Of a stretch of 64,000 nt of DNA, positions 19,853 to 59,770 are shown piece by piece. Numbering within the stretch: the stretch's first letter is position 1; each line of letters begins with the position of its first letter. This stretch comes from Nemertoderma westbladi (taxonomy: Eukaryota > Animalia > Xenacoelomorpha). The stretch is from assembly GCA_032718475.1 (NCBI GenBank), contig JAUCBJ010001793.1, positions 20,227 to 84,226 of the forward strand, given 5' to 3'. A model generated the notes under the pieces. The model was not told the origin of the DNA, did not search any database, and saw nothing but the letters and a program-made list of their open reading frames with translations. The translations under genes were made by a program, and so were the position numbers.

Positions 19853-21230
19853 AAGCCATCCAACCACCAAGGTTACGGCAGAATCGCCAGCCGATCGCCT
19901 CAATGGTTGGAAGGCCCACTTTGAAAAGCTCCTCAATAATGACAGGGTATTGCCTGATAACTTTATAGAAGCAAAAGTGTCTGAGTCTGTACTCCCAGAT
20001 ATTCCCATTGGTGATATCTCCTTTGCAGAAGTGAAGGCTGCTGCAAAGAGCATTAAGACCAATCGCGCCAGTGGAGTAGATGGTGTTCCCCTTGAGGTCT
20101 TTAAAATACTGATGTTTCGTGTTCCCCTTGAGGTTTTTAAAATACCTGAGTGTTTAAAGCTCATCTATCCCATCATAGTAGACATGTACATAACAACAAG
20201 AGTCCCACAAGAAATGAAAACAAATAAGTTGGCGCCAGTTCCCAAGAAGGGCAACCTAACACTCTATGGTCCTTTTCGGGGAATCTCATTGATCTCGATT
20301 GCTGCAAAGCTATACAATATAATTATATTAAATCGCATCAGGGATCCCATTGGGAGACAGCTCCGTGGAAATCAGAATGGGTTTCGTAAAGGTCGTGGGA
20401 CCATGGGGCCTATTTTGGCACTTAGAACATGCTGCTTCTAGTGTTGGTCTTTTTATTAACTCCAAAAAGACCAAAATTTTGACAGTTAACTTTGAAAGTC
20501 CTCAGCAAGTCTCTGACCGGATGAGCATAAGCGCAAAGGATGGTATACTTGAGCATGTTGACGACTTCTGTTACCTGGGATCATGGATCCGGAAGTCAGG
20601 TGAGGACCTTCGAATACGTAAGGGAAAGGCATGGGCAGCCTTGAATAGGCTTTTCAGGATTTGGAAGTCATAGAGAATTAATCGGAAACTAAAGCTCCGA
20701 TTATTTAGAGCAGCAGTAGTTCCAGTACTCCTCTACGGGAGTCCATGCTGGGCTCTAACTGCTGAGGACACCAAATCTCTGGATGGCACATTCACAAGAA
20801 TGCTACGCCGGGTTCATTGTGTCAAGTACAATGTACACATCTCCAAACCGACACTATATAACATTGGAGGTGTCTCATTGGTTCCCCCAAGCTTGACACT
20901 AGAACAAACTCGCCCCCGCTTTGCAGGACATTGTTTTCGCCGTGAGGACCAGCCAGTGCATAATCTTGTGCTTTGGCAGCCTCATAGAGTGAATAAGCTT
21001 GGTGGTGGACAGCCCATGACTTTCTTGAGGCGCATCTTAAAGGACACTGGCCTTGAAGATGCGGATGATCTAGCAAATGTCATGGGTTATAGGGAGTTGT
21101 GGCGGCGCAATTTTGTCGACAAGCCGGCACAGCCTTCTTAAAAATGCAGCTTCAATGCAGCATGCCGATCCTAGAAATAGTAGTAGTAGAAGTAGTATGC
21201 CGATCCGATCCTAGTAGTAGTAGTAGTTGT
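19853..21230 (+). mobile_element. RTE-clade LINE, 5'-truncated, RT core deleted
   Basis: ORFs 19950-20441, 20350-20673 and 20800-21141; jumps from ILALR straight to EHAASSVGL. Highly similar to the copy at 40410-41558; (TAG)n tail at ~21178-21228. Confidence 0.9.
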
Positions 21231-25240: not shown

Positions 25241-27548
25241 TTGTAACCTCCTCACTTGGAACCTCCATCCCTTGTAACCCCCTCATTTGTAACCACCTTA
25301 CTTGTAACCCTTTACCCCTTACTTATAACCCCCTCACTTGTGACCTCCCTCATTTGTAACCTCCTCACTCGTAACCTCCTCACTTGTAGCCTCCTCACTT
25401 GTAGCCTCCTCACTTGTAAGCTTATCACTTGTAACCTCCTCACTTGTAACCGCCTCACTTGTAACCTCCCTCGCTTGTAACCTCCTCACTTTTAATCACC
25501 TCACTTGTAACCTCCTCACTTTTAATCACCTCACTTGTAACCTCCCTCACTTTGTAACCTCCTCACTTTTTATCACCTCACTTGCAAACTTCACACTTGT
25601 AGCCTCCTCACTTGTAAGCTTCTCACTTGTAACCTCCTCACTTGTAACCGCCTCACTTGTAACCGCCTCACTTGTAACCTCCCTCGCTTGTAACCTCCCT
25701 CGCTTGTAACCTCCTCACTTTTAATCACCTCACTTGTAACCTCCCTCGCTTGTAACCTCCCTCGCTTGTAACCTCCCTCACTTTGTAACCTCCTCACTTT
25801 TTATCACCTCACTTGCAAACTTCACACTTGTAGCCTCCTCACTTGTAAGCTTCTCACTTGTAACCTCCTCACTTGTAACCGCCTCACTTGTAACCGCCTC
25901 ACTTGTAACCTCCCTCGCTTGTAACCTCCCTCACTTGTAACCTCCCTCACTTTGTAACCTCCTCACTTTTTATCACCTCACTTGCAAACTTCACACTTGT
26001 AGCCTCCTCACTTGTAAGCTTCTCACTTGTAACCTCCTCACTTGTAACCACCTCACTTGTAACCTCTTCACTTGTAACCTCCTCACTTGTAACCGCCTCA
26101 CTTGTTACCTCACTCACTTGTAACCACCTCACTTGTAACCTCCCTCACTTGTAACCTCCTCACTTTTAATCACCTCACTTGCAACCTCCACACTTGTAAC
26201 CTCCTCACTTGTAACCTCCTCACTTGTAACCGCCTCACTTGTAACCTCCCTCACTTGTAACCTCCTTACTTTCAATCACCTCACTTGTAACCTCCTCACT
26301 TTTAATCACCTCACTTGCAACCTCCACACTTGTAACCTCCTCACTTATAACCGCCTCACTTGTAACCTCCCTCACTTGTAACCTCCTCACTTTCAATCAC
26401 CTCACTTGTAACCTCCCTCACTTGTAACCTCCTCACTTTAAATCACCTCACTTACAACCTCCACACTTGTAACCTCCTCACTTTTAACCGCCTCACTTGT
26501 AACCTCCTCACTTATAACCCCCTCACTTGTTACCCTCCTGACTTGTAACCTCCTCACTTTTAATCACCTCACTTGTAACCTCCTCACTTGTAACCTCCTC
26601 ACTTTTAATCACCTCACTTGCAACCTCCACACTTGTAACCTCCTCACTTGTAACCTCCTCACTTGTAACCGCCTCACTTGTAACCTCCCTCACTTGTAAC
26701 CTCCTCACTTTCAATCACCTCACTTGTAACCTCCCTCACTTGTAACCTCCTCACTTTTAATCACCTCACTTGCAACCTTCACACTTGTAACCTCCTCACT
26801 TGTAACCGCCTCACTTGTAACCTGCCTCAATTGTAACCTCCTCACTTTCAATCACCTCACTTGTAACCTCCCTCACTTGTAACCTCCTCACTTTTAATCA
26901 CCTCACTTGCAACCTCCACACTTGTAACCTCCTCACTTGTAACCTCCTCACTTGTAACCGCCTCACTTGTAACCTGCCTCAATTGTAACCTCCTCACTTT
27001 CAATCACCTCACTTGTAACCTCCCTCACTTGTAACCTCCTCACTTTTAATCACCTCACTTACAACCTCCACACTTGTAACCTCCTCACTTGTAACCTCTC
27101 ACTTGTAACCTCCTCATTTGTAACCACATCACTTATAACCCCCTCACTTGTAACCTCCTCACTTGTAACCCTCTCACTTATAACCACTTCACTCGCTACC
27201 TCCTCACTTGGAACCTCCTCACTTGTAACCACATCACTTGTAATCCCCTCACTTATAACCTCCTCACTTGTACCTCCATCACTTGTAACCTCCCTCTCTT
27301 GTATCCTGCTCACTTGTAACTCACTCACTTGTAACCTCCTCACTTGTAACCTTCTCACTCGTAACCTCCTCACTTGTAACCCCCACACTTGTAACTCCCT
27401 CACTTGTAACCTCCTCACTTGTAACTCCATCACTTGTAACCCCCACACTTGTAACTCCCTCACTTGTAACCTCCTCACTTGTAACTCCATCACTTGTAAC
27501 CTGCTCACTTGTAACCACCTCACTTGTAATCCCCCTCACCTCACTTGT
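25241..27548. repeat. ~15-bp minisatellite (CTTGTAACCTCCTCA)n with higher-order variants
   Basis: Directly visible; larger blocks recur (gcaaacttcacacttgtagcc at ~25584, ~25816, ~25985). Confidence 0.97.
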
Positions 27549-28241: not shown

Positions 28242-28776
28242 GTGAGTCAGCTAAATCATAAGATTTCGTTCTTAATACAGTGCAGTGTAGTCGTAGTAAC
28301 AATAACTAGAATCATTAATAACAGTATGAATAATAATTTGTTTTCAATCATGTCTAGTTCCCAATCTATGGTACTTACTTACTACCAAGGCCTTGGTACT
28401 ACATTTTATCTTTATGCAGTAGCGATGTGATGAAAAGGTTACGGTAAAGATAACATATATCTTAACATGATTTCATGGAATGCAAGGGGACTGAAAGATA
28501 CCATTGATAATGATTAAGTTTTTAAGTACTGTATGTATTTCTTTTCTATTTAATTTGGTTGTACGAGGTGAAATCAGACTATTGGTATTTTATTCCAAAG
28601 TTTTCATATATGATAAATTTAATATGGCTTGAATAACAATAATATAATATGACATGTATTAATTGTCTAGTCTATCTTTTGGACTGATTCAATGTTGCTT
28701 TTAATTCAGGCCAAAGTCCATATGAAATACAATTATAATACCCAATTTACGATAAGTATAGTATATCATCATAGTA

Positions 28777-30092
28777 CACCATCTCCCTTAATACAACAAC
28801 CATTATTAACAGGCCGGAGTCCCCCCCCCCCCCCCCTTCATTTTTTCAAATTTTAATAAAATGCTACGAAATTTGGTATAATGATAGAACGACACCTTTT
28901 CTTACTGCTGGCAGAGCCGGGTTTTTCAATTTCTCAGTTATTTCCATACAACAAGCCCTTAAAAATGTCTAAATAAAAAATGTTTAACCATATCTCCGTG
29001 GACTTTATTTTACGTCTTTGAAATGTAATCTAGATATCATTAGAATGGCCTTCGTCTGTAGATTCCGAATCTGAAAACCATTTTAAATTTCACCAATATT
29101 TTCCTGAGATATTATCAACATTCAAAGGCATATAAAAGTTGCAATAATACGGTTGCAGCCTTAAAAGGTTCTAAAAACAAAACATACTACCAAATTAACG
29201 TAAAATAAATATGGGTAAAAGTGAGGGAGGGGGGAGGTGGGTGGTGGCGGGAATTAAAAGCACATCTTCAGTTCCCGGGAGCACTTGACTTCAGTTGAAT
29301 GACTCTTTAATACAGGCTGCGTTGCCTGCCTGTACGGTAATTCCAATTCTTTGGCGTATGAATTGAAATGACTTGGCGTTCCCACTAACGTTCTGGATTC
29401 GGTGGCCAAGCTGCCGGAGAAATTCTAGGGACGAAGGGCCAATGCCACCAAGTGTCTCAATTGCCACTGGTTGAACGAGATACTCAAGTGAGACGCTACT
29501 GTTCGAGACGGTTTTGCGTTCTTCAGCCAACTCAGCAACACGTGGACCATCTTGGTCAAATCTACATTATTCTAAGGTTTTTTGACTCTATTCTAGTATA
29601 GTTATTATTATTAGAGTTTGAGTTTTAGACGATTGAGTTGTAGATGATTGAGTTTTTAACGCTTAGCTAAATATAATTAATATCCTAGAATAGAGTAAAA
29701 AAAACATTAGTTAGAATTATGTAGATTTGCGTATAAAATGTATGCCTTTGAATGTTGACAATATCTCAAGAAAATATTGGTGAAATTTGAACGGTTTTCA
29801 GATTCGGAATCTACAGACGAAGGCGGTTCTAATGATATCTAGATTACATTTCAAAGACGTAAAATAAAGTCTACGGAGGTGGTTAAACATTGCTAAGTAG
29901 GCATTTTTTAAGGGCTTGTATGGAAATAACTGAGAAATTGAAAAATCCGGCCAGGCCACCAGTAAGAAAAGGTGTCGATCTATCATCATACCGAATTTCG
30001 TAGCATTTTATTGAAATTCGACAAAAGATGGGGGGGGGGGGGGGGGTAGCTTCGACCCCCTAAAAATGGTTGTTGTGTTAAGGGAGATGGTG
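28777..30092. mobile_element. Tc1/mariner-type MITE (TA duplication, CACCAT termini, long imperfect inverted repeats)
   Basis: TA|CACCATCTCCCTTAATACAACAACCATT ... AATGGTTGTTGTGTTAAGGGAGATGGTG|TA; the arms mirror each other for about 350 bp. Confidence 0.85.
29255..29560 (-). mobile_element. 3' fragment of a CRE/NeSL-type LINE (restriction-like endonuclease end) inside the MITE
   Basis: ORF 29530-29291 YLVQPVAIETLGGIG...LRQLG...FIRQRIGITVQAGNAACI, the typical C-terminus of REL-endonuclease LINEs. Confidence 0.7.
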
Positions 30093-30261
30093 TATATGTA
30101 AGTAAAGTAATCCAACTACAACAAAATATTTTATTGCATGGTAAATAATGTGGAACATTATTTTCTCTACATTCGAGATATTTGATGTACCGATGGTAGC
30201 GACTCGTAGAGTAGTGTAGTCGAGGTTAATAAAGAATCGAGAGCTCAGTGAAAATATGTTA

Positions 30262-31554: not shown

Positions 31555-31601
31555 CTGTAAAAATAGATTATGTTAGACAGTGTTATTTTTTAACATATTT
31601 A

Positions 31602-32525
31602 CACCATGTCCTGGAATATAGTGTCGTTATTCAGGTACCTGCCCCCCCCCCCCCCCCCCCCCCCCCCAAATTTTTTTACAAATCTTAATGAGATCCCGTC
31701 AGATAGCATGAAATTTGAAACACAGATAGTTTCACCTCCCTCCTCACTGACTGGGTGAGCCAGAATTTTTATTTTCGCTTTCATTCTTTAGCTACAAGCG
31801 TTTAAAAATAGTGTCTCCGGCGAAATTACACCAGTTACACCGCAGTATTTCTTCAACCTTATTATGATTTGTTAGTACTAATTTAAAGCTTGTCGTGCAA
31901 GGATTCCAAAAATGTAAAAACATTTGAATTTGGTAGAGAAATAGCCGAGATATGGGAATTCGAAAGTTGCATGTATTTGCTTCCCCTGCACGCCATTTAT
32001 TCTATTTAATAAATACATCATATTCTGGAACATTTTGTTTATCCCGTATGTAGCTGGGCAACAATGCAATGCTTTCTTTAAACATACGGTTATGTAGCTA
32101 GCTATTCATACATAAACAAAATGTTTTTATTTAATGGAATAAAACAGTTTTGCGCAAGTGCAAAACCATGAAACTTTTGAACGCTTATATCTCAGCTATT
32201 TCCCAAACAAATTCAAATATTTTTACATTTTTGGAATCCGTGCATGGTTAGCTTTCTATTTCTATCAACCAATCGCGATAAGGTTCATGAATAACTGCAG
32301 TGTGATTGGTGAAATATCACTGGAGACACCTTTTTCAAACGCTTGTAGCTAAAGATTGAAAGCAAAAATTTAAATTCTGGCTCACCCAGTAAGGAGGAGG
32401 GAGGTGAAACTATATCTGTTTCAAATTTCATGCTATCACAATAAGATTTGTAGAAAAATTTGGGGGGGGGGGGGTGGGGGGTGTCCAGGTACCAGAATAA
32501 CGACACTATATTCCAGGACATGGTG
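31602..32525. mobile_element. Foldback MITE (TA duplication, CACCATGTCC termini) in intron 2 of the calmodulin-like gene
   Basis: TA|CACCATGTCCTGGAATATAGTGTCGTTATTC ... GAATAACGACACTATATTCCAGGACATGGTG|TA; ~400-bp mirrored arms; sister copy at 52715-53731. Confidence 0.9.
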
Positions 32526-32696
32526 TATTTAAAGATGATAAACATATCTAGATATGTATTTTTTCGCACTTCTTTACACTGTTGTGAAAAAAGTTACTTT
32601 CTTTAAATAAACCTGATGTGGTGGCAAAATAAGGCAAAATAAAATTGCTCTACTTTCACTTTTTGACCTTAAATAAATATTTTAATAATTACCAAC

Positions 32697-36037: not shown

Positions 36038-36343
36038 GTAAATATTTACTTTATATTCACTTTATATACCTATCCGCAGCAATTTAAGCGGACGCTTGTT
36101 CTAGTAGTTGCGGTGTCACCGCGGGAGACAGTGGGGTGTTACTTGGCGCAAATCCCTTCTCCGCGAATATTGCCTCAATGTTAAATTAGAAATTTAGAGA
36201 AAGGTTGCAGTTGCTAGTTATTCTAACCAAAATGATAAACTAAAGTCAATATAACATGATTTACTCTAGGAGAGGGATGAATTTTGATTGCGTCGAAAGA
36301 TCCCAAGATGGCAGCTGTCTTTGAAATTAATACTCCATATCTC

Positions 36344-36408
36344 AAGAACCTGTGGCCTAGTGGTTGTAGTCTCGGCTTCCGCCTCGAGGTCCCAGGTTCG
36401 AATCCGAC
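36344..36408 (+). promoter_or_regulatory. tRNA-derived head with Pol III A and B boxes, directly upstream of a hammerhead
   Basis: A box TGGCCTAGTGG 36353-36363; anticodon-like arm CTCGG-CTTCCGC-C(T)CGAG; B box GGTTCGAATCC 36395-36405; no intact acceptor stem. Confidence 0.7.
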
Positions 36409-36451
36409 ACCACGCTGATGAGACCCAGTAAGGTCGAAACGCGTACGTGGT
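36409..36451 (+). ncRNA. Minimal type-I hammerhead ribozyme
   Basis: Stem I ACCACG/CGUGGU; core CUGAUGA; stem II GACC-CAGUAA-GGUC; GAAA; palindromic stem III ACGCGU; cleavage triplet GUA (cut after 36445). Confidence 0.88.
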
Positions 36452-36678
36452 TTGGAGAGATATGAGATATTAATTTCAAGAAAAATTACGCGATTCCTAA
36501 ATTTGTACACTACCCGGTTAAAAAGTACGCATGTGATGGGATTAGTCCTACAATTGCGCCAATAAAAGATAAGTTATTTTCGGTAAAATAAACTTATCAT
36601 TCGAGGTTAAGACCCCTAGATCCGTTCTTATATAATAAAATGGAATTAGTTGCCTTTTCAGGCACAGTGCTTTAAATG

Positions 36679-36847
36679 AGAAAGAGTGTGGAAGAGTTTA
36701 AGTGGGAAAGAGAGTTGAAGGGTTCACTGTAGGAAAGAGTGTGGAAGAGTTTAAGTGGGAAAGAGTGTGGAAGAGTTTAAGTGGGAAAGAGTGTGGAAGA
36801 GTTTAAGTGGGAAAGAGTGTGGAAGAGTTTAAGTGGGAAAGAGTGTG
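36679..36847. repeat. Short array of the 26/27-bp GGGAAAGAGTGTGGAAG satellite
   Basis: Same unit as 42081-45655, about 6 copies. Confidence 0.9.
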
Positions 36848-39527
36848 TTGGCAAATATACCAAAGGGCTAACTTTGCAAGCTCTTTTTCCGCTATTGTGC
36901 TAACTTTTCCAAAGTGCTAACTCAAAGTGCTAACTCGTGGTCCTTGCAATCTGAAACTTTGTCAAAACGTTTTTTAGACCATTTCCCACAAGTTAGCATT
37001 TTACCACTTTTGCAGTCCAGTGTGTCATGTGTATGAAAAACTTGGCCCCCCTTAGCGGCATTATGGGAATTGGTACTTTTCAAACACACTTAAACACTCA
37101 AGAGTATGGAATGGCCATAATGCTAACTTACAAACACACTTCTTACACTTACATTCCATTTGTACCAACTACCAAGTGTTAAATTATTATAAGACCGCAA
37201 ATACCCTAATACGCCAACTCGCTGAATATTGATTGCGAATACCCCTCCGTTTCGCGAATAGCCAATTGTACACGTATAACCTAATAAAAGCGTTTTGCAC
37301 AAACTGCGGGAGCGCTAAAGTCTTAACTTATTACTTTTAGATAGTCTTTGAAAGTACTCTATACAAAGTCCTAACCCGATAACTGTGTATTGTCATGGAA
37401 ACGTAATGGTTTCTTACCTGGACATCCATACAATGTATTTCAATTTATTGCACAGGCGACATATTATTATGTAGTGAGTGATTGCCGTGAAATGGAAAAC
37501 CTAGATATATTGACAATCGTTATTTCAAAATTCATCCGGTCTAATTGTTGATATACCCCAAATTGAGGTTCTAATAGTGAAACAATTTTATGGTTAAAGG
37601 GAAAACTCTATTTGTTTTTATGTAGAGTAATGCGTAATTTTATTCCACAAAGTTGCCTTTTCTTTTATAGCAGGTAAATTGCTATTGGTATTGCTATTGC
37701 TATTGCTATTGGTAAATAGCTATTTTTCTGAAATTTATATTGCTAATTTAATTATTTGGCATATTCTGTTTGTGGCGCAGACTATAATAATAATAACATT
37801 GTTGACATACAGTCTTTGAACCTTTCAGTCTTTCTCAGCAGTACTTTGTGGCTCGTCCCACATAATAAAAACTGAAACTTTGCTATGACAACACACCCGG
37901 TTCTTTTAAATTTGCGTGATTTGATTTATGCTCGCACCACTATTTGTAAGAAATATTAAAACTTATCTTACAGTATGCCAATGTAGTAATGGTATTAAAA
38001 TATAATTAAATTAATTTACATTATTAATGCTTCAGCTAAAAAATCGTTTCAGCTAAAAAATCGTATGTAATAAAAAAAATAAGAATATTTTTAATATGTG
38101 TATATGTAATATACAGTAGGTATTACTGCTAAGTTAGGCAGTAGGCCAGAGCGGGCTCCTTAAATACATGCAACTACTGTATTATAGTGTAGGTCAACTA
38201 TAAAACATTTAGCAATCCACAGTGAGTATCGACTGCAATAGGACACAACACACTGCTTTGTGTAACTAAAATTCATTCTCCTGATCCACCCCCTAACATA
38301 GCAGAGTGAGTAACCTTATTGTAGATATACCCTTAGGAAGCACTGGGAGAGCAATCAGCTTATGGGGTAATACATTAGAAACCAACAGCTTATGTGTGAG
38401 TAAACATTGACTTTCCTTATAGCCTACTAGTAAAACTTGGCAACCAATACGTTTTACTATGACTGTGTATAACATATTAAGCCATATTTCATCATGAACA
38501 CCAGCTGTTATTTTACCATTGCTTTTAATTTCGCGACAAAACAATGTCAAAAAACTAAATATATCGAATACCACACATAGAATCGATCTGAAATTTTGTA
38601 ACGCGATTATGAACCTCAAAAGCAATGTACTTGCAAAATTTCATCAAAATCGCCAGGCAGGAAGTGCCTTAACCTAGATAATTATCAGTCAGTCAGTGTC
38701 AGTCAATGTAATGTATCCTGAAGATTCTTACAGTAAGTATCCCGCTGTCAAGCGGGCTCCTAATAATTAGTGCATTATAGGCGTACCTTTTACGAGGTCG
38801 GTATTGCAATTTTGGATTAAATTCGTCAAAGTTAATAGTATATGAGGCAGGTTTTCAGTAACACTCACTTTATTTTACACTTCTGAAATATTAGTAAGAT
38901 AAAGTTATATTAAAATTATCTTATAATTGATTACTGGATGGTTTGCTGAAATAAAAATTAGATATAATCAAAACATTTTCCGTTCTGATGGAACTTTTTT
39001 TTAGATGTTCAACAAATTTATTTAACCATTTAAACTTCGGGATCCCGTTTCAAAAAAGTCGGAATCGGGATTCGATATTTCGCTGGAATCCCTGTTTTTC
39101 GGTTTTTTTTTAAACATTAGTGCATTGATGAAGCCAGAAGTCTTCCGATTGTTTAAATATAAAATCTGATTTAAATAAAAAAATCTGATTTAAATAAGAA
39201 AATTGATTTAAATGGGTGACTACAAAACAAAGACCAAAGACCTAAATAATAAAGACCTGCATAATCTTTGAAACATGTGTTAACTTTCGTTTACTGTTTT
39301 GGTTCTCCCAACAAGCCTCTGTAACATGCTCCTTTACTAACCTGTTCCTTTAAATGGCAATGTAACCTAACGCTCTTTGGCACCTGTACAAAACAAAGAG
39401 GTAAAGTCGCGTTACGTCCTAAAGGGGATTAGGTCCCATTGCCATACAGCGTTAGGTCCCATTGGTGTAATATTATGGGTTTGTTCAGAAGTGGAAAAAA
39501 TGGGAGCGCGTCACCGGGGGTTGAACC

Positions 39528-39573
39528 AGCGCTATACGCACGTTTCGGCCTAACAGGCCTCATCAGTAGCGCT
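39528..39573 (-). ncRNA. Type-I hammerhead ribozyme, copy 1
   Basis: Reverse complement AGCGCUA CUGAUGA GGCC UGUUA GGCC GAAA CGUGCG UA UAGCGCU. Confidence 0.9.
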
Positions 39574-39870
39574 AACCAGCTCAGCCACTAGCCCCTGACA
39601 CTCGCAGTCCCACCTAATCCACTTCTATTGAACGGGCAGTCTTAAGTTGCAAATATTCTATCTCTAACAGCGGACCTAACGGCCTCAAGTATGCTAGAGT
39701 GAAACAGGAGGGAAGTACAAATAAATAAATATTCAGCTCGGTATTGCTGCCAGGTGATATTAATTAAATAAATTGGAGAAGAGCTGTTGCAACTGTAATT
39801 AAAGGTGTAATATTATTATGGGTTTGTTCAGAAGTGGAAAAAATGGGAGCGCGTCACCGGGGGTTGAATC

Positions 39871-39916
39871 AGCGCTATACGCACGTTTCGGCCTAACAGG
39901 CCTCATCAGTAGCGCT
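39871..39916 (-). ncRNA. Type-I hammerhead ribozyme, copy 2
   Basis: Identical 46-nt motif, 343 bp from copy 1. Confidence 0.9.
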
Positions 39917-40015
39917 AACCAGCTCAACCACTAGCCCCTGACACTCACATTCCCACCTAATCCACTTCTAATCCTAATCCACTGCGAGTGTCAGGGGCTA
40001 GTGGCTGAGCTGGTT

Positions 40016-40061
40016 AGCGCTACTGATGAGGCCTGTTAGGCCGAAACGTGCGTATAGCGCT
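40016..40061 (+). ncRNA. Type-I hammerhead ribozyme, copy 3, between Pol III A-box-like and B-box-like motifs
   Basis: Stem I AGCGCUA/UAGCGCU, CUGAUGA 40023-40029, stem II GGCC/GGCC, GAAA 40043-40046, short stem III, GUA cut after 40054. A box TGGCTGAGCTGG 40002-40013, B box GGTTCAACCCC 40062-40072, T6 at 40089-40094. Confidence 0.9.
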
Positions 40062-40409
40062 GGTTCAACCCCCGGTGACGCGCTCCCATTTTTTCCACTT
40101 CTGAACAAACCCATAATATTACACCTTTAATTACAGTTGCAACAGCTCATCTCCAATTTATTTAGGTCCCATTGCCATTTACAGGAGCAGGTTAGTAAAG
40201 GAGCAGGTTACAGAGGCGTGTTTGGGGAACCAAAACAATAAACGAAAGTTAACACATGTGTTTCATACAGGTCTTTGTTTTTTGGGTCTTTGCTTTTTAG
40301 TCACCCGATTTAAATGAAAAAAAATCTGATTTAAATCAAATAAATCTGATTTAAACAAAAAAATCTGATTTTTTTATTTAAAAAAAAATCATGATTTTTA
40401 TCAACCCTG

Positions 40410-41558
40410 CACCCATGACATTTGCTAGATCATCCGCATCTTCAAGGCCAGTGTCCTTTAAGATGCGTCTCAAGAAAGTCATGGGCTGTCCACCATGCTT
40501 ATTCAGTCCATGAGGCTGCCAAAGTATAAGTTTATGCACTGGCTGGTCCTCACGGTGAAAGCAATGTCCTGCAAAGCGGAGGCGATTTTGTTCTAGTGTC
40601 AAGCTTGGGGGAACCAATGAGACACCTCCAATGTTATATAGTGTCTGGTTGGAGATGTGTGCATTGTACTTGACACAATGTACCCGGCGTAGCATTCTTG
40701 TGAATGTGCCATCCAGAGATTTGGTGTCCTCAGCAGTTAGAGCCCAGCATGGACTCCCATAGAGGAGTACTGGAACTACTGCTGCTCTAAATAATCGGAC
40801 CTTAAGTTTCCGATTAATTCTCGGTGACTTCCAAATCCTGCAAAGCATATTCAAGGCTGCCCAATGCTTTCCCTTACGTATTCGAAGGTCCTCATCTGAC
40901 TTCCGGATCCATGATCCCAGGTAACAGAAGTCGTCCACATGCTCAAGCATACCATCCTTTGAGCTTATGCTCATCCGATCAGAGACTTGCTGAGGACTTT
41001 CAAAGTTAACTGTCAAAATTTTGGTCTTTCTGGAGTTAATAAAAAGACCAACACTAGAAGCAGCATGTTCTAATGAGCTGAGGAGCCGTTGGGCTCCCTC
41101 TAGTGATTCTGAGAGTACTCCTAAGTCATCAGCAAAGTCTAGATCAGTTAGGTACTTGGCAGGATTTCCTCGACTTCTGGAGCCAGTAGGTGGAGTTATC
41201 ATCACCCCATCATCATTATGATGATCTAAGGACATGCGTAGAACATAGTCAACCACAATTATGAACAAGAATGGTGCAAGTGTGTCTCCCTGGAGGACGT
41301 CCCATAACACTTCAAATGGTTCTCTGTCACCGTCAACAGTAGAGACAAATGTTGTCGAACCATCGTATACTGATCTGATTGCTGCAATAATTTCATCAGG
41401 AATCCCATATAATGAAAGTATGCTGAACATACGTGAGAGAGAGACTGAATCAAAGGCCTTGAAGAAGTCAACAAAGATAACAGCCAGATGCCTATCTTTC
41501 TTTTTTGATAACTCTTCAATTATCCTTCGGGTATCCTATGGGCTCCATGGTCCCACGA
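40410..41558 (-). mobile_element. RTE-clade LINE fragment (RT core to C-terminus)
   Basis: ORF 41430-40378: VLQGDTLAPFLF, LDFADD, YLGSW, LLYGS; upstream frameshifted FVDFFKAFDS. Same family as 19853-21230. Confidence 0.92.
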
Positions 41559-42080: not shown

Positions 42081-45000
42081 GTGTGGAAGAGTTTAAGTGG
42101 GAAAGAGTGTGGAAGGGTTTACTTTGGGAAAGAGTGTGGAAGGGTTTACTTTGGGAAAGAGTGTGGAAGCGGAAGGGTTTACTTTGGGAAAGAGTGTGGA
42201 AGGGTTTACTTTGGGAAAGAGTGTGAAAGGATTTACTGTGGGAAAGAGTGTGGAAGGGTTTACTGTAGGAAAGAGTGTGGAAGAGTTTAAGTGGGAAAGA
42301 GTGTGGAAGGGTTTACTGCGGGAAAGAGTGTGGAAGGGTTTAAATGGGAAAGAATGTGGAAGGGTTTACTGTGGGAAAGAGTGTGGAAGGGTTTACTTTG
42401 GGAAAGAGCGTGGAAGGGTTTACTGTGGGAAAGAGTGTGAAAGGATTTACTTTGGGAAAGAGTGTGGAAGGGTTTACTTTGGGAAAGAGTGTGGAAGCGG
42501 AAGGGTTTACTTTGGGAAAGAGTGTGGAAGGGTTTACTTTGGGAAAGAGTGTGAAAGGATTTACTGTGGGAAAGAGGGTGGAAGGGTTTACTGTAGGAAA
42601 GAGTGTGGAAGAGTTTAAGTGGGAAAGAGTGTGGAAGGGTTTACTGTGGGAAAGAGTGTGGAAGGGTTTACTGTGGGAAAGAGTGTGGAAGGGTTTACTT
42701 TGGGAAAGAGTGTGAAAGGGTTTACTGTGGGAAAGAGCGTGGAAGGGTTTACTCTAGAAAATAGTGTGGAAGAGTTTAAGTGGGAAAGAGTGTGGAAGGG
42801 TTTACTTTGGGAAAGAGTGTGGAAGGGTTTACTTTGGGAAAGAATGTGGAAGGGTTTAATTTGGGAAAGAGTGTGGAAGCGGAAGGGTTTACTGTGGGAA
42901 AGAGTGTGGAAGGGTTTACTCTAGGAAAGAGTGTGGAAGAGTTTAAGTGGGAAAGAGTGTGGAAGGGTTTACTGTGGGAAAGAGTGTGGAAGGGTTTACT
43001 GTGGGAAAGAGTGTGGAAGGGTTTACTTTGGGAAAGAGTGTGAAAGGATTTACTGTGGGAAAGAGTGTGGAAGGGTTTACTGTAGGAAAGAGTGTGGAAG
43101 AGTTTAAGTGGGAAAGAGTGTGGAAGGGTTTACTGTGGGAAAGAGTGTGGAAGGGTTTAAATGGGAAAGAATGTGGAAGGGTTTACTGTGGGAAAGAGTG
43201 TGGAAGGGTTTACTTTGGGAAAGAGCGTGGAAGGGTTTACTGTGGGAAAGAGTGTGAAAGGATTTACTTTGGGAAAGAGTGTGGAAGGGTTTAATTTGGG
43301 AAAGAGTGTGGAAGCGGAAGGGTTTACTTTGGGAAAGAGTGTGGAAGGGTTTACTTTGGGAAAGAGTGTGAAAGGATTTACTGTGGGAAAGAGTGTGGAA
43401 GGGTTTACTGTAGGAAAGAGTGTGGAAGAGTTTAAGTGGGAAAGAGTGTGGAAGGGTTTACTGTGGGAACGAGTGTGGAAGGGTTTACTGTGGGAAAGAG
43501 TGTGGAAGGGTTTATTTTGAGAAAGAGTGTGGAAGGGTTTACTCTAGGAAAGAGTGTGGAAGAGTTTAAGTGGGAAAGAGTGTGGAAGGGTTTACTGTGG
43601 GAAAGAGTGTGGAAGGGTTTATTTTGAGAAAGAGTGTGGAAGGGTTTACTCTAGGAAAGAGTGTGGAAGAGTTTAAGTGGGAAAGAGTGTGGAAGGGTTT
43701 ACTGTGGGAAAGAGTGTGGAAGGGTTTATTTTGAGAAAGAGTGTGGAAGGGTTTACTCTAGGAAAGAGTGTGGAAGAGTTTAAGTGGGAAAGAGTGTGGA
43801 AGGGTTTACTGTGGGAAAGTGTGTGAAAGGGTTTACTGTGGGAAAGAGTGTGGAAGGGTTTACTGTAGGAAAGAGTGTGGAAGGGTTTACTCTAGGAAAG
43901 AGTGTGGAAGAGTTTAAGTGGGAAAGAGTGTGGAAGGGTTTACTGTGGGAAAGAGTGTAGAAGGGTTTACTTTGGGAAAGAATGTGGAAGGGTTTATTTT
44001 GAGAAAGAGTGTGAAAGGGTTTACTGTGGGAAAGAGTGTGGAAGGGTTTACTGTAGGAAAGAGTGTGGAAGGGTTTACTCTAGGAAAGAGTGTGGAAGAG
44101 TTTAAGTGGGAAAGAGTGTGGAAGGGTTTACTGTGGGAAAGAGTGTGGAAGGGTTTACTTTGGGAAAGAATGTGGAAGGGTTTATTTTGAGAAAGAGTGT
44201 GAAAGGGTTTACTGTGGGAAAGAGTGTGGAAGGGTTTACTGTAGGAAAGAGTGTGGAAGGGTTTACTCTAGGAAAGAGTGTGGAAGAGTTTAAGTGGGAA
44301 AGAGTGTGGAAGGGTTTACTGTGGGAAAGAGTGTAGAAGGGTTTACTTTGGGAAAGAGTGTGGAAGGGTTTACTTTGGGAAAGAGTGTGGAAGGGTTTAC
44401 TGTGGGAAAGAGTGTGGAAGGGTTTATTTTGAGAAAGAGTGTGAAAGGGTTTACTGTGGGAAAGAGTGTGGAAGGGTTTACTGTAGGAAAGAGTGTGGAA
44501 GGGTTTACTGTAGGAAAGAGTGTGGAAGAGTTTAAGTGGGAAAGAGTGTGGAAGGGTTTACTGTAGGAAAGAGTGTGGAAGGGTTTACTCTAGGAAAGAG
44601 TGTGGAAGAGTTTAAGTGGGAAAGAGTGTGGAAGGGTTTACTGTGGGAAAGAGTGTAGAAGGGTTTACTTTGGGAAAGAGTGTGGAAGGGTTTACTTTGG
44701 GAAAGAATGTGGAAGGGTATACTTTGGGAAAGAGTGTGAAAGGGTTTACTGTGGGAAAGAGCGTGGAAGGGTTTACTGTGGGAAAGAGTGTGGAAGGGTT
44801 TACTGTGGGAAAGAGTGTGGAAGGGTTTACTGTGGGAAAGAGTGTGGAAGGGTTTACTTTGGGAAAGAGTGTGGAAGGGTTTAAGTGGGAAAGAGTGTGG
44901 AAGGGTTTACTGTGGGAAAGAGTGTGGAAGGGTTTACTGTGGGAAAGAGTGTGGAAGGGTTTAAATGGGAAAGAGTGTGGAAGGGTTTATTTTGAGAAAG

Positions 45001-45655
45001 AGTGTGGAAGGGTTTACTCTAGGAAAGAGTGTGGAAGAGTTTAAGTGGGAAAGAGTGTGGAAGGGTTTACTGTGGGAAAGAGTGTGGAAGGGTTTACTGT
45101 GGGAAAGAGTGTGGAAGGGTTTAAATGGGAAAGAGTGTGGAAGGGTTTACTGTGGGAAAGAGTGTGGAAGAGTTTAAGTGGGAAAGAGTGTGGCAGGGTT
45201 TACTGTGGGAAAGAGTGTGGAAGGGTTTACTGTGGGAAAGAGTGTGGAAGGGTTTACTGTGGGAAAGAGTGTGGAAGGGTTTAAATGGGAAAGAGTGTGG
45301 AAGGGTTTACTGTGGGAAAGAGTGTGGAAGAGTTTAAGTGGGAAAGAGTGTGGAAGGGTTTACTGTGGGAAAGAGTGTGGAAGGGTTTACTGTGGGAAAG
45401 AGTGTGGAAGAGTTTAAGTGGGAAAGAGTGTGGAAGGGTTTACTGTGGGAAAGAGTGTGGAAGGGTTTACTGTGGGAAAGAGTGTGGAAGGGTTTAAATG
45501 GGAAAGAGTGTGGAAGGGTTTACTGTGGGAAAGAGTGTGGAAGAGTTTAAGTGGGAAAGAGTGTGGAAGGGTTTACTGTGGGAAAGAGTGTGGAAGGGTT
45601 TACTGTGGGAAATGGTGTGGAAGGGTTTACTGTGGGAAATGGTGTGGAAGGGTTA
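42081..45655. repeat. 26/27-bp G-rich minisatellite (GGGAAAGAGTGTGGAAGGGTTTACTGT)n, about 3.6 kb
   Basis: Directly visible; alternating 27- and 26-bp variants explain the many GKSVEGFTV / WERVWKGLL ORFs. Confidence 0.98.
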
Positions 45656-48413: not shown

Positions 48414-49403
48414 GGGAACTTTTGGACAAACCGAGTGAGGGGAACTTTGGACGAACCGGGTGAGGGGAACTTTGGACGAACCGGGTGAGGGGAACTTTGG
48501 ACGAACCGGGTGAGGGGAACTTTGGACGAACCGGGTGAGGGGAACTTTGGACGAACCGGGTGAGGGGAACTTTTGGACGAACCGGGTGAGGGGAACTTTG
48601 GACGAACCGAGTGAGGGTAACTTTGGACGAACCGGGTGAGGTGAACTTTGGACGAACCGGGTGAGGGGAACTTTGGACGAACCGAGTGAGGGGAACTTTG
48701 GACGAACCGAGTGAGGGGAACTTTGGACGAACCGAGTGAGGGGAACTTTGGACGAACCGAGTGAGGGGAACTTTGGACGAACCGAGTGAGGGTAACTTTG
48801 GACGAATCGGGTGAGGGGAACTTTTGGACGAACCGGGTGAGGGGAACTTTGGACGAACCGAGTGAGGGGAACTTTGGACGAACCGAGTGAGGGGAACTTT
48901 GGACGAACCGGGTGAGGGGAACTTTGGACGAACCGAGTGAGGGGAACTTTGGACGAACCGAGTGAGGGTAACTTTGGACGAACCGGGTGAGGGAACTTTG
49001 GACGAACCGGGTGAGGGGAACTTTTGGACGAACCGGGTGAGGGGAACTTTGGACGAACCGAGTGAGGGGAACTTTGGACGAACCGAGTGAGGGTAACTTT
49101 GGACGAACCGGGTGAGGGGAACTTTGGACGAACCGGGTGAGGGGAACTTTTGGACGAACCGGGTGAGGGGAACTTTGGACGAACCGAGTGAGGGTAACTT
49201 TGGACGAACCGGGTGAGGCGAACTTTGGACGAACCGAGTGAGGGGAACTTTGGACGAACCGGGTGAGGGGAACTTTGGACGAACCGAGTGAGGGGAACTT
49301 TGGACGAACCGAGTGAGGGGAACTTTGGACGAACCGAGTGAGGGGAACTTTGGACGAACCGGGTGAGGGGAACTTTGGACGAACCGGGTGAGGGGAACTT
49401 TGG
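48414..49403. repeat. 25-bp minisatellite (GGGGAACTTTGGACGAACCG(G/A)GTGA)n, about 39 copies
   Basis: Directly visible; the 25-aa periodic ORFs equal three 25-nt units. Confidence 0.98.
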
Positions 49404-49974
49404 ATCCGTTAGGAAACAAAGTGGCCTCGAAATTTTGTTATTGCGGCCAAAATTGGGAGCAACAATACTAACAAATAGTCTTGAAATTAGTCTTAACACA
49501 GTTTAACAACGTCTTAATAGTCAAACGCGGTTTTTGGTCTACCAACAGTGCAACAGTCGTAAAGTGCTTGATTCAGCCTTCACGCAACTTGGCTCTTTGC
49601 AAACACTCGGTTATCTCAATGTCCAAACATGTGGTTATCCCCTTTGGGCATATGAGATTAGCGAAACTTTACAACTATAGAGCCACTTTGTAAAGAGCGC
49701 AAAGTAGTGGGGCCCTGAGTGAAGACTGGCGGTCTGCTACCGAGCTAACTAGCAGAGCTGGTGTAAGAGTTGGCGCACTCAGAAGAGTTTGCCAGAGGCT
49801 CTCCCCGCCCCAGAAAGAGCTAGTTAGCCAATTAGTCCCAATACTAACTTTGCCGAATGAGTATGCCAGAAACACACTGAGTAAAAATGGCGAAAACGCC
49901 GGGTTTGGCGGGGTCAGAGGTCATCATGATTGTTGCATAAATTAGTAAGTTTCCCGTTAAACCGTAGTTAAAAG

Positions 49975-51389: not shown

Positions 51390-52433
51390 TCACTTTTTGG
51401 CACCCTTGCCGGGTTTATTAGAAGCAATCGCTGCCTCCGCCACAGAGAGCTTGGCGTTGAGTGGTAACGACAATGCGTTGATCTTGTCGTCAACAAAATC
51501 CTTGAGCTCGTCTATTTGTCCGGATATTGTCTCTGAAAGAACCTTTTTTAAGGCCTTCACAGCCTCTGGGTCCAACTCCTCCTCCACCTGTTCTACTTCC
51601 GGTGCCGCTACCGTGTCCCGACTCTCTTCCTCCACTTCCGGTTCACTTATGACGTCATCCCGCAACGGAGTTCCAGTCAGGGGGGTATCCGGTACACTAC
51701 CGACCGGTAACCCGGGGTAACTGAATTCTACGTCGAGTCGCACTTTAGGCGTCATGACGTATTTGTACAGCTTGTAATGCCGGAAGTAGGTGTCTGTCAC
51801 GTACTGAGCCACCGTCTGTATCTGCAGAGGAGTGAACAGCTGCAATGAGTAGGGAGGTCGTTTAACCCCGTGGTTCAGTAGTGACTCTTTGAAGTAGGTG
51901 AACGCCTGTGTAACATTAGTATACGGCGTCTCCGCGTTCACTTTATGAACGTTAACTATCATTGAAAACACTGCCGATGTTTGTTCGTTTGTAAATAATT
52001 CTCGTCTACAGAACTGAATCGTATAGAAATACAAGTCTAGGGTTATTTGCGAGCGGGGTTCTACATTTAAATTGAACATTTCCGCGAGATTGGAGCGAAG
52101 TTGTTCCGGGTTTTCCGCTCGCTGTAGCCGTTCTGCTTGAGGCAGTGTAAGGTGCTCCCAAAGACATATCTTGGGTTTGTGGAAGCGTGGGAGATTTGGT
52201 TTGTAGACAAGCTGATCCGAAGGAACCAACTCTGCCGGCTCTTGGTGCTCTAACTCCTCTTCAACAAGCTCCTCCACCGGTCTATCAACAGGGTCCACGC
52301 CTTCTTTTATTGGAGATGAATCTCGACTCTGTATCTCCGCGACTGCTACGTCGGATTCTTGCTTCGCAGATTCTCGTGTGTTCTCACCATTCGCATCACG
52401 AGTTTCCGTTTCATCAGGTTCTGACTGAGTCAT
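51390..52433 (-). CDS. CFAP119: Cilia- and flagella-associated protein 119 (CCDC189) homolog, single coding exon, 347 aa
   Basis: PKICLW, ITLDLYFYTIQFC, EQTSAVF, HGVKRPPYSLQLF and YVTDTYFRHYKLYKYVMTPKVRLD match the recalled CCDC189/CFAP119 core; acidic N-terminus. Confidence 0.92.
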   Translation of the reverse strand: MTQSEPDETETRDANGENTRESAKQESDVAVAEIQSRDSSPIKEGVDPVDRPVEELVEEELEHQEPAELVPSDQLVYKPNLPRFHKPKICLWEHLTLPQAERLQRAENPEQLRSNLAEMFNLNVEPRSQITLDLYFYTIQFCRRELFTNEQTSAVFSMIVNVHKVNAETPYTNVTQAFTYFKESLLNHGVKRPPYSLQLFTPLQIQTVAQYVTDTYFRHYKLYKYVMTPKVRLDVEFSYPGLPVGSVPDTPLTGTPLRDDVISEPEVEEESRDTVAAPEVEQVEEELDPEAVKALKKVLSETISGQIDELKDFVDDKINALSLPLNAKLSVAEAAIASNKPGKGAKK

Positions 52434-52657
52434 TATTGTAAAGTATAATTTATCAATTTAATTTGCTACAATAATTAATTTAATTATTGCTTACCGATAC
52501 ATACCAGTAGTAAAAGTAATAATTATAATAATATCGGTACGAAATGAAATAAAATAAAACCAATTCGTTACACACGCCAGTAGGCTACTTAATGTACAGG
52601 ATTATCAATATCAGTTAAGATGCCCATCTTATTTGGCATCCTATTTACAGCGTCGTT

Positions 52658-52671: not shown

Positions 52672-52714
52672 ATTTGAATCGATTTATGGCGGGATATTTA
52701 ACATCATGTATATA

Positions 52715-53731
52715 CACCATTTCCCAGAATATAGTGTCGTAATTCAGTGACACGGCCCCCAACCCCCCTAATTTTTTTACAAATCGTAATGAGATTGCAT
52801 GAAATTTGAAACCGAGATAGTTTCACCTCCCGACCACTGACTGGCTGAGCCAGAAGTTTTATTTTCGCTTTCATTCTTTAGCTACAAGCGTTTAAAAAAA
52901 GTGTCCCCAGCGATATTACACCAGTTACACCGCAGTTATTCTTCGACCTTATAGTGATTTGTTGGTACTGATAAAAAGCTGACCGTATAAGGATTCCAAA
53001 TATGTAAGACAATTTGAATTTCGTTGAAAAATAGCGGAGATATGGGCATTCAAATTTTGCATGGTTTTGCACCGGCGCGAGGTTATTTTACTCTATTTAA
53101 TCAAGGACTGCTATACTACTATATATATATTATATAGATATACTACTATATATACTACTAGTATAGTAGTATAGCAGTCCTTGTATTTAATATATAAACC
53201 ATATTCTGGAACATTTTTTAAATGTATGAATAGCTAAGTAATAGTATGATTAAAGATGTAATGCATTGTTGCCCAGCTACGTATTTGGATAAACAAAATA
53301 TTCCAGATTATGATGTATTTATTAAATAGAATAAAATAGCCTCGCGGAGGTCCATAAACATGCAACATTTGAACGCCCATATCTCCGCTATTTTTCAACG
53401 AAATTCAAATTGTCTTACATATTTGGAATCCTTGTACGGTCAGCTTTTTATCAGTACCAACTGTCAGTACCAGTACAACTACCAACCTCACTATAAGGTT
53501 GAAAAATAACTGCGGTGTAACTGGTGTAATATCGCTGGAGACACTTTTTTTAAACACATGTAGCTAAAGATTGAAAGCAAAAATAAAAATTCTGGCTCAC
53601 CCAGTCAGTGGTCGGGAGGTGAAACTATCTCTGTTTCAAATTTCATGCAATCTCATTACGATTTGTAAAAAAAAATTAGGGAGGGGGGGGCCAGGTACCT
53701 GAATAACGACACTATATTCTGGGACATGGTG
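52715..53731. mobile_element. Foldback MITE, sister of 31602-32525
   Basis: TA|CACCATTTCCCAGAATATAGTGTCGT ... ACGACACTATATTCTGGGACATGGTG|TA with long mirrored arms. Confidence 0.9.
53102..53183. mobile_element. 82-bp mini inverted-repeat element with an 8-bp duplication
   Basis: TATTTAAT|CAAGGACTGCTATACTACTATA ... TATAGTAGTATAGCAGTCCTTG|TATTTAAT; absent from the sister MITE at ~32005. Confidence 0.85.
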
Positions 53732-53971
53732 TAATAGCAGTATTATAATTGATTGATTGATTAATTGAACATCGGGGCTAACGCCCCCAGCGGCTATAAT
53801 AATATCATTATAATGTATACAACTATATGTACATCTATCCAATCACGCAAGATTACGACATACAGGTAGTCACCATTAACTTAATATTTCAATAAAGTCA
53901 TTTATAAGACAGTAGTACACTTTATGAGTTATAAGTTTATAACTCCTTTATAATACAGTACACTTTATGTA

Positions 53972-54600: not shown

Positions 54601-55845
54601 TCCCATCCCATCCCATCCCATCCCATCCCATCCCATCCCATCCCATCCCATCCCATCCCATCCCATCCCATCCCATCCCATCCCATCCCATCCCATCCCA
54701 TCACATCCCAACCCACCCCATCCCATCCCATCCCATCCCATCCCATCCCTTCCCATCCCATCCCATCACATCCCACCCCATCCCATCCCATCCCAACCCA
54801 TCCCATCCCATCCCATCCCATCCCATCCTATCTCATCCCATCTCATCCCATCCCATCCCATCCCATCCCACCCCACCCCACCCCACCCCATCCCATCCCA
54901 TCCCATCCCATCCCATCCCATCCCATCCCACCCCATCCCATCCCATCCCATCCCATCCCATCCCATCCCTTCCCATCCCATCCCAACCCATCCCATCCCA
55001 TCCCATCCCATCCCACCCTACCCCATGCCATCCCAACCCATCCCATCCCATCCCATCCCATCCCATCCCATCCCATCCCATCCCATCCCATCCCATCCCA
55101 TCCCATCCCATCCCATCCCATCCCATCCCATCCCATCCCATCCCATCCCATCCCATCCCATCCCATCCCATCCCATCCCATCCCATCCCATCCCATCCCA
55201 TCCCATCCCATCCCATCCCACCCCATCCCATCCCTTCCCATCCCATCCCATCCCATCCCACCCCATCCCATCCCATCCCAACCCATCCCATCCCATCCCA
55301 TCCCATCCCATCCCATCCCATCCCATCCCATCCCATCCCTTCCCATCCCATCGCATCCCATCCCATCACATCCCATCCCAACCCATCCCATCCCATCCCA
55401 TCCCATCCCATCCCATCCCATCCCATCCCATCCCATCCCATCCCAAACCAAACCAAACCAACCCATCCCATCCCATCCCATCCCATCCCAACACACCCCA
55501 TGCCATCCCATCCCATCCCATCCCAGCCCATCCCATCCCATCCCATCCCATCCCATCCCATCCCATCCCATCCCATCCCATCCCATCCCATCCCATCCCA
55601 ACCCATCCCATCCCAACCCATCCCATCCCATCCCATCCCATCCCATCCCATACCACCCCATCCCAACCCATCCCATCCCCCCAAACCAACCCATCCCATC
55701 CCATCCCATCCCATCCCAACACACCCCATGCCATCCCATCCCATCCCATCCCATCCCATCCCATCCCATCCCATCCCATCCCATCCCATCCCATCCCATC
55801 CCATACCATCCCATCCCAACCCATCCCATCCCATCCCATCCCATC
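54601..55845. repeat. (TCCCA)n pentanucleotide array, about 1.25 kb
   Basis: Directly visible. Confidence 0.98.
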
Positions 55846-59210: not shown

Positions 59211-59717
59211 ATGTCTGATACTAAGCAGAACCTGTCAGACAGTTTATTAGATGTAACCATCTGCAACTCAGATCGAGACGTACAACCGTCTGGTCGTAAG
59301 TTCAGTTCACCTCCCACTGTGAGGAAGGTCATCCCTCCAGTAGTAATAACAGAACCTAGGCTAGTCCAACATCGTAGGTCTATCATAGGCACCCGAGCTC
59401 AGGTCAAGCGGGACCAACAAGCAGCGGAACAGCAACAACCCGCTAGTCAAGAACCTATTCCTCAGCGGCCCAGCAGCTCCAGTAGTGAGGATACTGTAGA
59501 GCTGACACCCGAGCGCGGAGCAGAGATGACGGATGCGGTTTATACGGATCCCCTTCTCATCCTTCCTGCAGCCGTACTCACTAGGTTATTGATCGCTGTG
59601 GAAGAACACCAGATCGATTGGGCGAGAAGCCAGCGTTCAACTAGAGATAGTTATGCTGGATACACAAGAGAAGAACTGAAGTCCATGGTCGAGTCGCAAG
59701 ATTCTTCAGCTCTATAG
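59211..59717 (+). CDS. BEL/Pao polyprotein, N-terminal segment (frameshifted from the main ORF)
   Basis: ATG-initiated 168-aa ORF whose end overlaps the open -1 frame (open from 59651) that leads into 59771-63550. Confidence 0.6.
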   Translation: MSDTKQNLSDSLLDVTICNSDRDVQPSGRKFSSPPTVRKVIPPVVITEPRLVQHRRSIIGTRAQVKRDQQAAEQQQPASQEPIPQRPSSSSSEDTVELTPERGAEMTDAVYTDPLLILPAAVLTRLLIAVEEHQIDWARSQRSTRDSYAGYTREELKSMVESQDSSAL

Positions 59718-59770
59718 AGCGATTAAAAGAACAACTGTTTCAACAACCTCAAGGACCTCAAGAGCAGGGA

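Follow-up and report, generated by a model that had tools for sequence, protein, structure and literature searches.

The DNA analysed here (the window) is a stretch of 64,000 nucleotides from the xenacoelomorph Nemertoderma westbladi (GenBank assembly GCA_032718475.1, contig JAUCBJ010001793.1, forward-strand positions 20,227 to 84,226), and all coordinates below are those of the window. It is repeat-rich eukaryotic DNA with long satellites, fragments of reverse transcriptases (RTs) of the long interspersed element (LINE) type, an open reading frame (ORF) with a DUF1759 domain, and a stretch with a CLAMP domain. Between positions 39464 and 40164 lies a non-coding repeat with a period of 343 bp, arranged as two direct copies and one head-to-head inverted copy, in which a type I hammerhead ribozyme is nested between an A box and a B box of the kind found in tRNA genes. 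An earlier note on this DNA had described a ~340-bp unit with direct copies and an inverted partial copy, three identical type I hammerheads and a flanking duplication of 12 to 13 bp, all of which are borne out below.

Anatomy, ribozyme and abundance of the 343-bp repeat

Copy 1 (39464-39627, minus strand), which resembles the 3' pseudo-long terminal repeat (pLTR) of Penelope elements, adjoins an AT-rich spacer of 176 bp without any run of four Ts (39628-39803, minus strand), beyond which lies copy 2 (39804-39970, minus strand). A junction containing a short re-copied piece of the 5' end of the unit (39971-39980) joins copy 2 head to head to copy 3 (39981-40125, plus strand), which is inverted and 100% complementary to copy 1 over 145 nt (145/145). 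Copy 3 is followed by a one-sided, Penelope-type tail of 39 nt (40126-40164, plus strand) that matches the first 39 nt of the spacer (39765-39803). In the shared part, copy 2 differs from copies 1 and 3 by four substitutions and a 3-nt insertion. The element is flanked by a target-site duplication (TSD) of 13 bp, with identical copies at 39452-39464 and 40162-40174 (plus strand); the left copy has its last base in common with the end of the element, and the last three bases of the tail are common with the duplication. The TSD is genuine: after deletion of one copy, the two flanks form a gapless alignment of 110 nt with the opposite arm of the host repeat into which the element was inserted. 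This palindromic repeat, similar to a miniature inverted-repeat transposable element (MITE), spans 39229-40298 (arms 39229-39370 and 40162-40298) and holds the element within one arm. In the DNA sequencing runs, host copies elsewhere give joints that skip 725-743 nt, and the coverage depth of the spacer equals that of the module of boxes and ribozyme.

No stop-free stretch of more than 60 codons overlaps the element, and it carries no ORF for an RT with a GIY-YIG endonuclease. A 34-codon frame from an ATG in the core was dismissed as within chance (estimated at ~20%), as were Rfam microRNA matches, which reflect the inverted junction and lie far below the gathering scores. The element has the attributes of a non-LTR retrozyme: a tandem non-coding unit within 150-450 bp, a hammerhead in each unit, a GC content (44%) under 50%, a TSD longer than 4 bp, a high copy number (as contig numbers, not as a copy count), and neither a primer-binding site (PBS) nor a polypurine tract (PPT) as judged by eye.

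The hammerhead cores (39543-39566 and 39886-39909 on the minus strand, 40023-40046 on the plus strand) are identical across stems I to III in all three copies, with the conserved core, helices I to III and open helix I of type I. Rfam Hammerhead_1 matched 40017-40060 with 23.4 bits (E 8.6e-4), below its gathering score of 34. The ribozymes occupy 39527-39574 (copy 1, minus strand), 39870-39917 (copy 2, minus strand) and 40015-40062 (copy 3, plus strand), with predicted cuts after 39535, 39878 and 40054, respectively. As the earlier note had it, the two minus-strand cuts would release a monomer of 343 nt (39535-39877, computed from the predicted sites), with the B box at its 5' side and the A box at its 3' side. 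In the canonical hammerheads of animals, helix I is described as having 6 bp, helix II 4 bp and helix III 1-2 bp, the last closed by a palindromic loop, and the minimal hammerheads of Penelope elements as having 7-8 bp in helix II, preceded by an extra base, and 4-5 bp in helix I (PMC4209133). By its sequence, the ribozyme described here is of the canonical animal type, and not minimal as had been claimed, because helix II has 4 bp, helix I has 7-8 bp (with 5 further pairs beyond a 4-nt bulge) and the extra base is absent. Helix III has 2 bp, and its loop is a palindrome in the family's majority variant. Contact between loops 1 and 2 is, we assume, plausible.

This majority variant concerns position 39539, at which a letter other than that of the window holds 84-97% of the contig depth (four DNA runs, three samples). 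It turns stem III into a perfect 8-nt palindrome and, by nearest-neighbour folding, gives a predicted stem I pairing of 0.98 in a 101-nt RNA, versus 0.04 with the letter of the window. With this palindrome and this predicted pairing, the family looks built for dimeric cleavage.

The family was observed in contigs of public sequencing runs aligned to the window at 80% identity or more; numbers per run are contig numbers and not copy counts. The 1.3-kb region that includes the host repeat drew 6,706 (run X2), 3,447 (X4) and 396 (X5) contigs, and the 171-nt module alone drew 1,308, 917, 666 and 47 in the four DNA runs. These contigs show a large polymorphic family, with 23 sites of the module varying at 3% or more in the four runs. 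At that threshold, a single site varies in the A box (where the purine is kept) and none in the B box, stem I or the run of six Ts (T6) that follows the B box; in the hammerhead core, one site varies up to 8% in one run. Diverged subfamilies, visible in loose contig ends, retain a run of six or seven Ts after the B box. In run X1, which may be an RNA run, a contig of 371 nt over 39509-39881 has ends overlapping by 30 nt, so that this independent data set contains a closed, head-to-tail unit of 341 nt, a picture that tandem DNA and a circle would give identically.

Exact-motif scans of metagenomes and viral contigs returned no match. Scans for the architecture returned 7 viral, 101 metagenome and 2 further viral loci (flanks were taken for 80 of the 101 metagenome loci); among these 110 loci, in collections poor in animal DNA, three had hammerhead-like stems and none had an upstream A box. 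One viral contig (L005) and one metagenome contig (L014) have hammerhead-like stems with a chance B-box-like word and no A box. A BLAST search of phages with the 35-nt 5' half gave only matches of E=4 in a primase gene.

tRNA-type boxes around the ribozyme

In copy 1, pattern matching placed an A box at 39576-39587 (minus strand; tRNA positions 8-19, with the TRGCY and YGG motifs) and a B box at 39517-39527 (minus strand), followed by T6 at 39495-39500 (minus strand), which is a candidate terminator for RNA polymerase III (Pol III) as well as part of an outer helix. The box consensus used agrees with the motifs named in PMC10886601. The corresponding positions are 39919-39930, 39860-39870 and 39838-39843 in copy 2, whose B box is damaged by loss of the invariant G, and 40002-40013, 40062-40072 and 40089-40094 in copy 3. 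The pattern of A box plus B box occurs three times in the 64 kb, versus a mean of 0.08 in 100 shuffles, and always beside a hammerhead: in copies 1 and 3 and in an unrelated hammerhead element at 36353. Both boxes arose in 14 of 20,000 shuffles of the unit, in 1 of 20,000 shuffles of the module, and in 2 of 50,000 when the ribozyme was held fixed. T6 is the sole run of four or more Ts on either strand of the unit and begins 18 nt past C61 of the B box, so that A box, B box and T run follow each other in the order and with the spacing of a tRNA gene; the earlier note had already given the succession of the three. The 243 nt up to the next start are free of such T runs, which is weak evidence, since 146 dinucleotide and 657 mononucleotide shuffles, of 5,000 each, show the same. 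From these patterns, it is reasonably likely that the boxes form a working promoter.

The resemblance does not extend to a tRNA-like fold, as the earlier note had supposed: ARAGORN and Rfam find no tRNA or cloverleaf, and there is no anticodon, acceptor stem or T stem. The ribozyme core falls, by count, on tRNA positions 28-34 versus 32-38 for the anticodon loop; it is thus near the place assigned to it, but about 4 nt early, and a role for the proposed analogy with the anticodon U-turn is unsupported. Database matches to the A-box motif led to no source tRNA and were uninformative (1 of 40 was a tRNA, at the matching position, with no eukaryotic tRNA set among those searched).

The module is closed by a rod (39487-39626, minus strand), whose arms (39608-39626 and 39487-39505) form a 19-bp helix of 15 Watson-Crick, 2 G-U and 2 U-U pairs in which T6 is paired. 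The rod had been foreseen, but with a length of ~110 nt; it has ~140 nt and includes T6. Its folding energy (z -3.6) does not choose the strand, since the antisense strand gives z -4.6; for the circular monomer, z is -1.8.

The unrelated element just mentioned (36318-36482, plus strand) has an A box at 36353 and a B box at 36395, and then a type I hammerhead core at 36415-36439, which is the order known from the Sm-alpha repeats of Schistosoma. It has a palindromic stem III, a long closing stem (fold z -6.3) and an Rfam HH9 match of 26.6 bits. The span from T8 to G53 is 43 nt in this element versus 61 nt in the 343-bp repeat, and in both families a long hairpin bears the boxes and the ribozyme at its tip.

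Insertion footprint, template and competing explanations

Insertions of Penelope elements are described with direct repeats and an adjacent inverted 5' copy, mostly head to head, a tail of 30-40 nt at one end and a TSD (PMC3846280, PMC8557442). The same pattern of direct and head-to-head inverted repeats, one-sided tail and TSD is found at this one locus, and mobilisation by a Penelope element is, on this footprint, very likely, which makes the Penelope link stronger than the earlier note had argued. For the Penelope element Poseidon, both DNA strands were found to be cut and extended in vitro, with priming in an AC-rich region inside the RNA and a tail bounded by two start sites; the main substrate was uncut RNA (PMC11167929). 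Here, copy 3 extends exactly 39 nt beyond the end of copy 1, which is A/C-rich; by analogy with Poseidon, the end of copy 1 at 39464 would be the first start of reverse transcription and the end of the tail the second, and the same RNA end would, we infer, have served as template for both copy 1 and copy 3. All five differences set copy 2 apart (the chance of five events falling on one named copy is 0.004), and at position 39604 copy 2 has the majority letter of the family while copies 1 and 3 share a minority state. Since a single circle would give three alike copies, the identity of copies 1 and 3 and the divergence of copy 2 point to an uncut linear multimer of unlike units as template, and speak against a circle, to which the earlier note had pointed, as the form from which this insertion was made. 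The identity of copies 1 and 3 may also stem from gene conversion at a later time.

We favour, with fair confidence, a reading of the element as a high-copy, non-coding, non-LTR retrozyme with its hammerhead nested in tRNA-type boxes, likely inserted by a Penelope element and likely read at least partly by Pol III. TFIIIC would bind both boxes, and Pol III transcription would for the most part run from near 39995 to T6 and yield an RNA of ~100 nt; longer RNAs would arise by read-through of T6 or from host Pol II. A Penelope RT/endonuclease would nick both DNA strands and prime at two sites of the uncut multimer, separated by 39 nt. Copy 1, the spacer and, further upstream, copy 2 would then be copied onto one strand, and copy 1 with the tail once more onto the other, and this copying on two strands would produce the head-to-head layout and the 13-bp duplication. 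The hammerheads would cut mainly as dimers via the palindromic stem III, and the monomers of 341-343 nt thus released could be circularised by a tRNA ligase, as in coral, mussel and axolotl; we put the occurrence of such circles in vivo slightly below an even chance. Since the predicted cut lies between the boxes, a cut linear monomer would carry B before A, an order called unsuitable for TFIIIC (PMC3978253), and new copies with a functional promoter would come only from multimers left uncut or from circles closed again by ligation.

Several observations weigh against this reading. No autonomous Penelope partner was seen within the window; long contigs ending in the module were considered as partners and rejected, being similar in depth to other single contigs. 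Both inferred starts of reverse transcription lie downstream of T6, so that a Pol III RNA ending there could not itself serve as the mobile template. The predicted Pol III start lies ~33 and ~14 nt inside copies 2 and 3, as counted from their 5' ends, from which it follows that the template of this insertion began elsewhere than at the promoters of these two copies. A Pol III RNA from about 39995 to 40089-40094 would miss both start sites, which leaves read-through or Pol II as the source of the mobile RNA, and another role or none for the short RNA ending at T6. Of the hybrid of a short interspersed element (SINE) and a retrozyme proposed in the earlier note, there stands a hammerhead-bearing, non-autonomous mobile repeat with tRNA-type boxes on either side of the ribozyme. 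The boxes also pair with each other, extending stem I as had been noticed before, so that their conservation is not assignable to promoter function, and the two box changes of copy 2 reinforce this helix yet damage the B box. No common variant breaks either box, as the note's promoter would require, but variable sites equally spare 39470-39500 and 39608-39640, which makes the test of box conservation weak. The stem III letter of the window is a minority variant that is predicted to misfold, and this locus may cut poorly. Finally, of nine Xenopus retrozyme dimers, eight were uncleaved and one was cleaved (bioRxiv 10.64898/2026.07.22.740005).

An extension of the favoured reading, which we consider unlikely, would make the element a natural tRNA-cassette ribozyme: the bulk of ~100-nt Pol III hammerhead RNA from thousands of copies would act in trans, via the palindromic stems I and III, as the dimer half that cuts long transcripts, and the cut between the boxes would silence daughter promoters unless the RNA stays uncut or is re-circularised. 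If this were true, a single module of 70 nt would combine the functions of promoter, ribozyme and copy-number control.

Among the alternatives, the unit could be the pLTR with a stump, or an internally deleted derivative, of an autonomous Penelope element with a tRNA-derived promoter in its pLTR, with no separate retrozyme cycle. The insertion signature is identical to that of Penelope elements, Xenopus retrozymes are reported to derive from pLTRs (bioRxiv 10.64898/2026.07.22.740005), and the two ends lie at +100 and +139 from the core ATG, on the scale of the Poseidon start at +111 to +118 (PMC11167929). Nevertheless, we give this alternative a low probability: the spacer is as deep as the module, with no loose end inside it among the 23 of 1,183 loose ends listed, the X1 contig closes on a 341-nt unit, the ribozyme is canonical while those of Penelope repeats are mostly minimal (PMC4209133), and no stop-free stretch of more than 60 codons overlaps it. 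Somewhat less probable still is that the boxes come from a captured tRNA gene and now serve only RNA structure (extended stem I, loop-1 bulge and closing rod), with transcription by Pol II read-through. Such a structural role would explain the mutual pairing of the boxes, the common A-box variant that changes a G-U to an A-U pair, the improved pairing in copy 2 and the pairing of T6 in a helix whose 5' arm is upstream of the Pol III start, and newt satellite transcripts are apparently made by Pol II (PMC6765202); but it leaves aside that A box, B box and T run keep the order and spacing of a tRNA gene, that neither box is broken by a common variant, and that Sm-alpha is apparently transcribed by Pol III (PMC6765202).

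That the element is a common tRNA-derived SINE which an RTE-type LINE has moved, with a 5' inversion by twin priming and an incidental or dead hammerhead, is very improbable. LINE-type RT fragments do occur in the window, one of them adjoining the host palindrome, and TSDs of 13 bp are also compatible with LINE insertion; however, the element lacks an A-rich or microsatellite tail and resembles none of the LINE fragments, its inverted part, which repeats copy 1 plus 39 nt, would not be a twin-priming product, and the ribozyme core and stems are nearly invariant, with a majority variant that favours the hammerhead fold.

The surroundings of the insertion are rich in repeats. Nested palindromic repeats at 39139-39446 and 40162-40399 form the MITE-like element, with arms 84% identical, inside a second repeat that carries AT-rich units of 19-20 bp, and the deepest coverage of the region in the DNA runs falls on the arm at 40197-40243. 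The LINE-type RT fragments (RVT_1) lie at 40378-41535 (minus strand), 14800-16788 (minus strand), 4525-5154 (plus strand) and 20422-21087, the last of which is an inverted copy of 40411-41073 with 95% identity; we take them to be RTE-like. The DUF1759 ORF (59651-63550, plus strand) has 1,299 codons, including an Ala/Glu-rich repeat, and is presumably the gag region of a BEL/Pao element. The open frame at 51390-52457 (minus strand) contains the CLAMP (flagellar C1a-32) domain (E 1e-30) and is likely an exon of a host gene. Long minisatellite arrays occupy 9917-10967, 25241-27539, 42081-45654, 48414-49404 and 54601-55845, with periods of 20, 15, 27, 25 and 5, respectively, and a short relative of the 27-mer array is found at 36671-36847. 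Large imperfect palindromes with related copies (52713-53733, 31596-32545 and 28770-30098) were searched for a hammerhead core, and none was found.

Relation to known retrozymes, Penelope elements and tRNA-box systems

Non-LTR retrozymes have been defined, and their circles shown, in animals (PMC7229834), and a 2020 review left their polymerase as I, II or III (PMC7761336). Their link to Penelope elements has been inferred from phylogeny, with retrozymes derived from pLTRs (bioRxiv 10.64898/2026.07.22.740005). The locus described here adds the footprint of a Penelope insertion on a non-coding retrozyme, with differences between copies that bear on whether the template was an uncut linear multimer or a circle, and a compact candidate promoter that is addressable by one B-box mutation and that the predicted cut would split. 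Engineers have built cassettes with a ribozyme inside a tRNA promoter; if the nested boxes work, the 343-bp repeat would be a natural cassette of this sort. A hammerhead placed between an A box and a B box did not turn up in the literature searched, with Repbase, Dfam and supplements outside the search; further invertebrate retrozymes are presented in the supplements of PMC7229834, which may affect this novelty.

The retrozymes of coral, mussel, axolotl and Xenopus share with the repeat a tandem unit of 150-450 bp, a GC content under 50% and a canonical type I hammerhead with a weak palindromic helix III (PMC7229834; bioRxiv 10.64898/2026.07.22.740005), and animal non-LTR retrozymes further share a TSD longer than 4 bp and the lack of coding capacity. 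In the parts of these sources considered, no Pol III boxes are mentioned ('Pol III' is absent from PMC7229834 by term search), and circles, which are a prediction for the repeat, were shown in those animals. Endonuclease-positive Penelope elements (Adineta Pen2a and Anolis Poseidon) have the same two direct repeats and one inverted head-to-head repeat, a tail of 30-40 nt, a TSD and a hammerhead in the repeat (PMC3846280, PMC11167929, PMC8557442), but the repeat has no RT/GIY-YIG ORF and a canonical instead of a minimal ribozyme, and Pen2a is described with a putative TATA/initiator promoter where the repeat has tRNA-type boxes.

Two further systems are analogies only. Helenus/TRIMp3 has captured tRNA A and B boxes in the terminal repeat of a mobile element, but has LTRs, a PBS, a PPT and TSDs of 4-5 bp, with no ribozyme mentioned in the part of the source considered (PMC10886601). 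Circularly permuted tRNA genes have a box order that is inverted in linear RNA and restored via a circle, but yield working tRNAs through protein splicing enzymes (PMC3978253).

The nearest precedent, as the earlier note had proposed, is Sm-alpha, in which a promoter is followed by a hammerhead, which is apparently transcribed by Pol III and requires tandem copies (PMC6765202), and which has been linked to tRNA-Gln (PMC2770079). Sm-alpha and its relative Sj-alpha of Schistosoma are, like the repeat, high-copy non-coding repeats (of ~335 bp) with a tRNA-derived Pol III promoter and a type I hammerhead that need more than one unit to propagate (PMC6765202, PMC2770079, PMC8490949). The repeat likewise unites tRNA-type A and B boxes and a hammerhead in one unit; compared by description, however, the whole promoter precedes the ribozyme in Sm-alpha, whereas here the ribozyme lies between the boxes, the predicted cut splits the promoter and T6 follows the B box. 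As far as its sequence tells, the element would be a retrozyme of the Sm-alpha kind, in which the nested layout of promoter and ribozyme is the new part.

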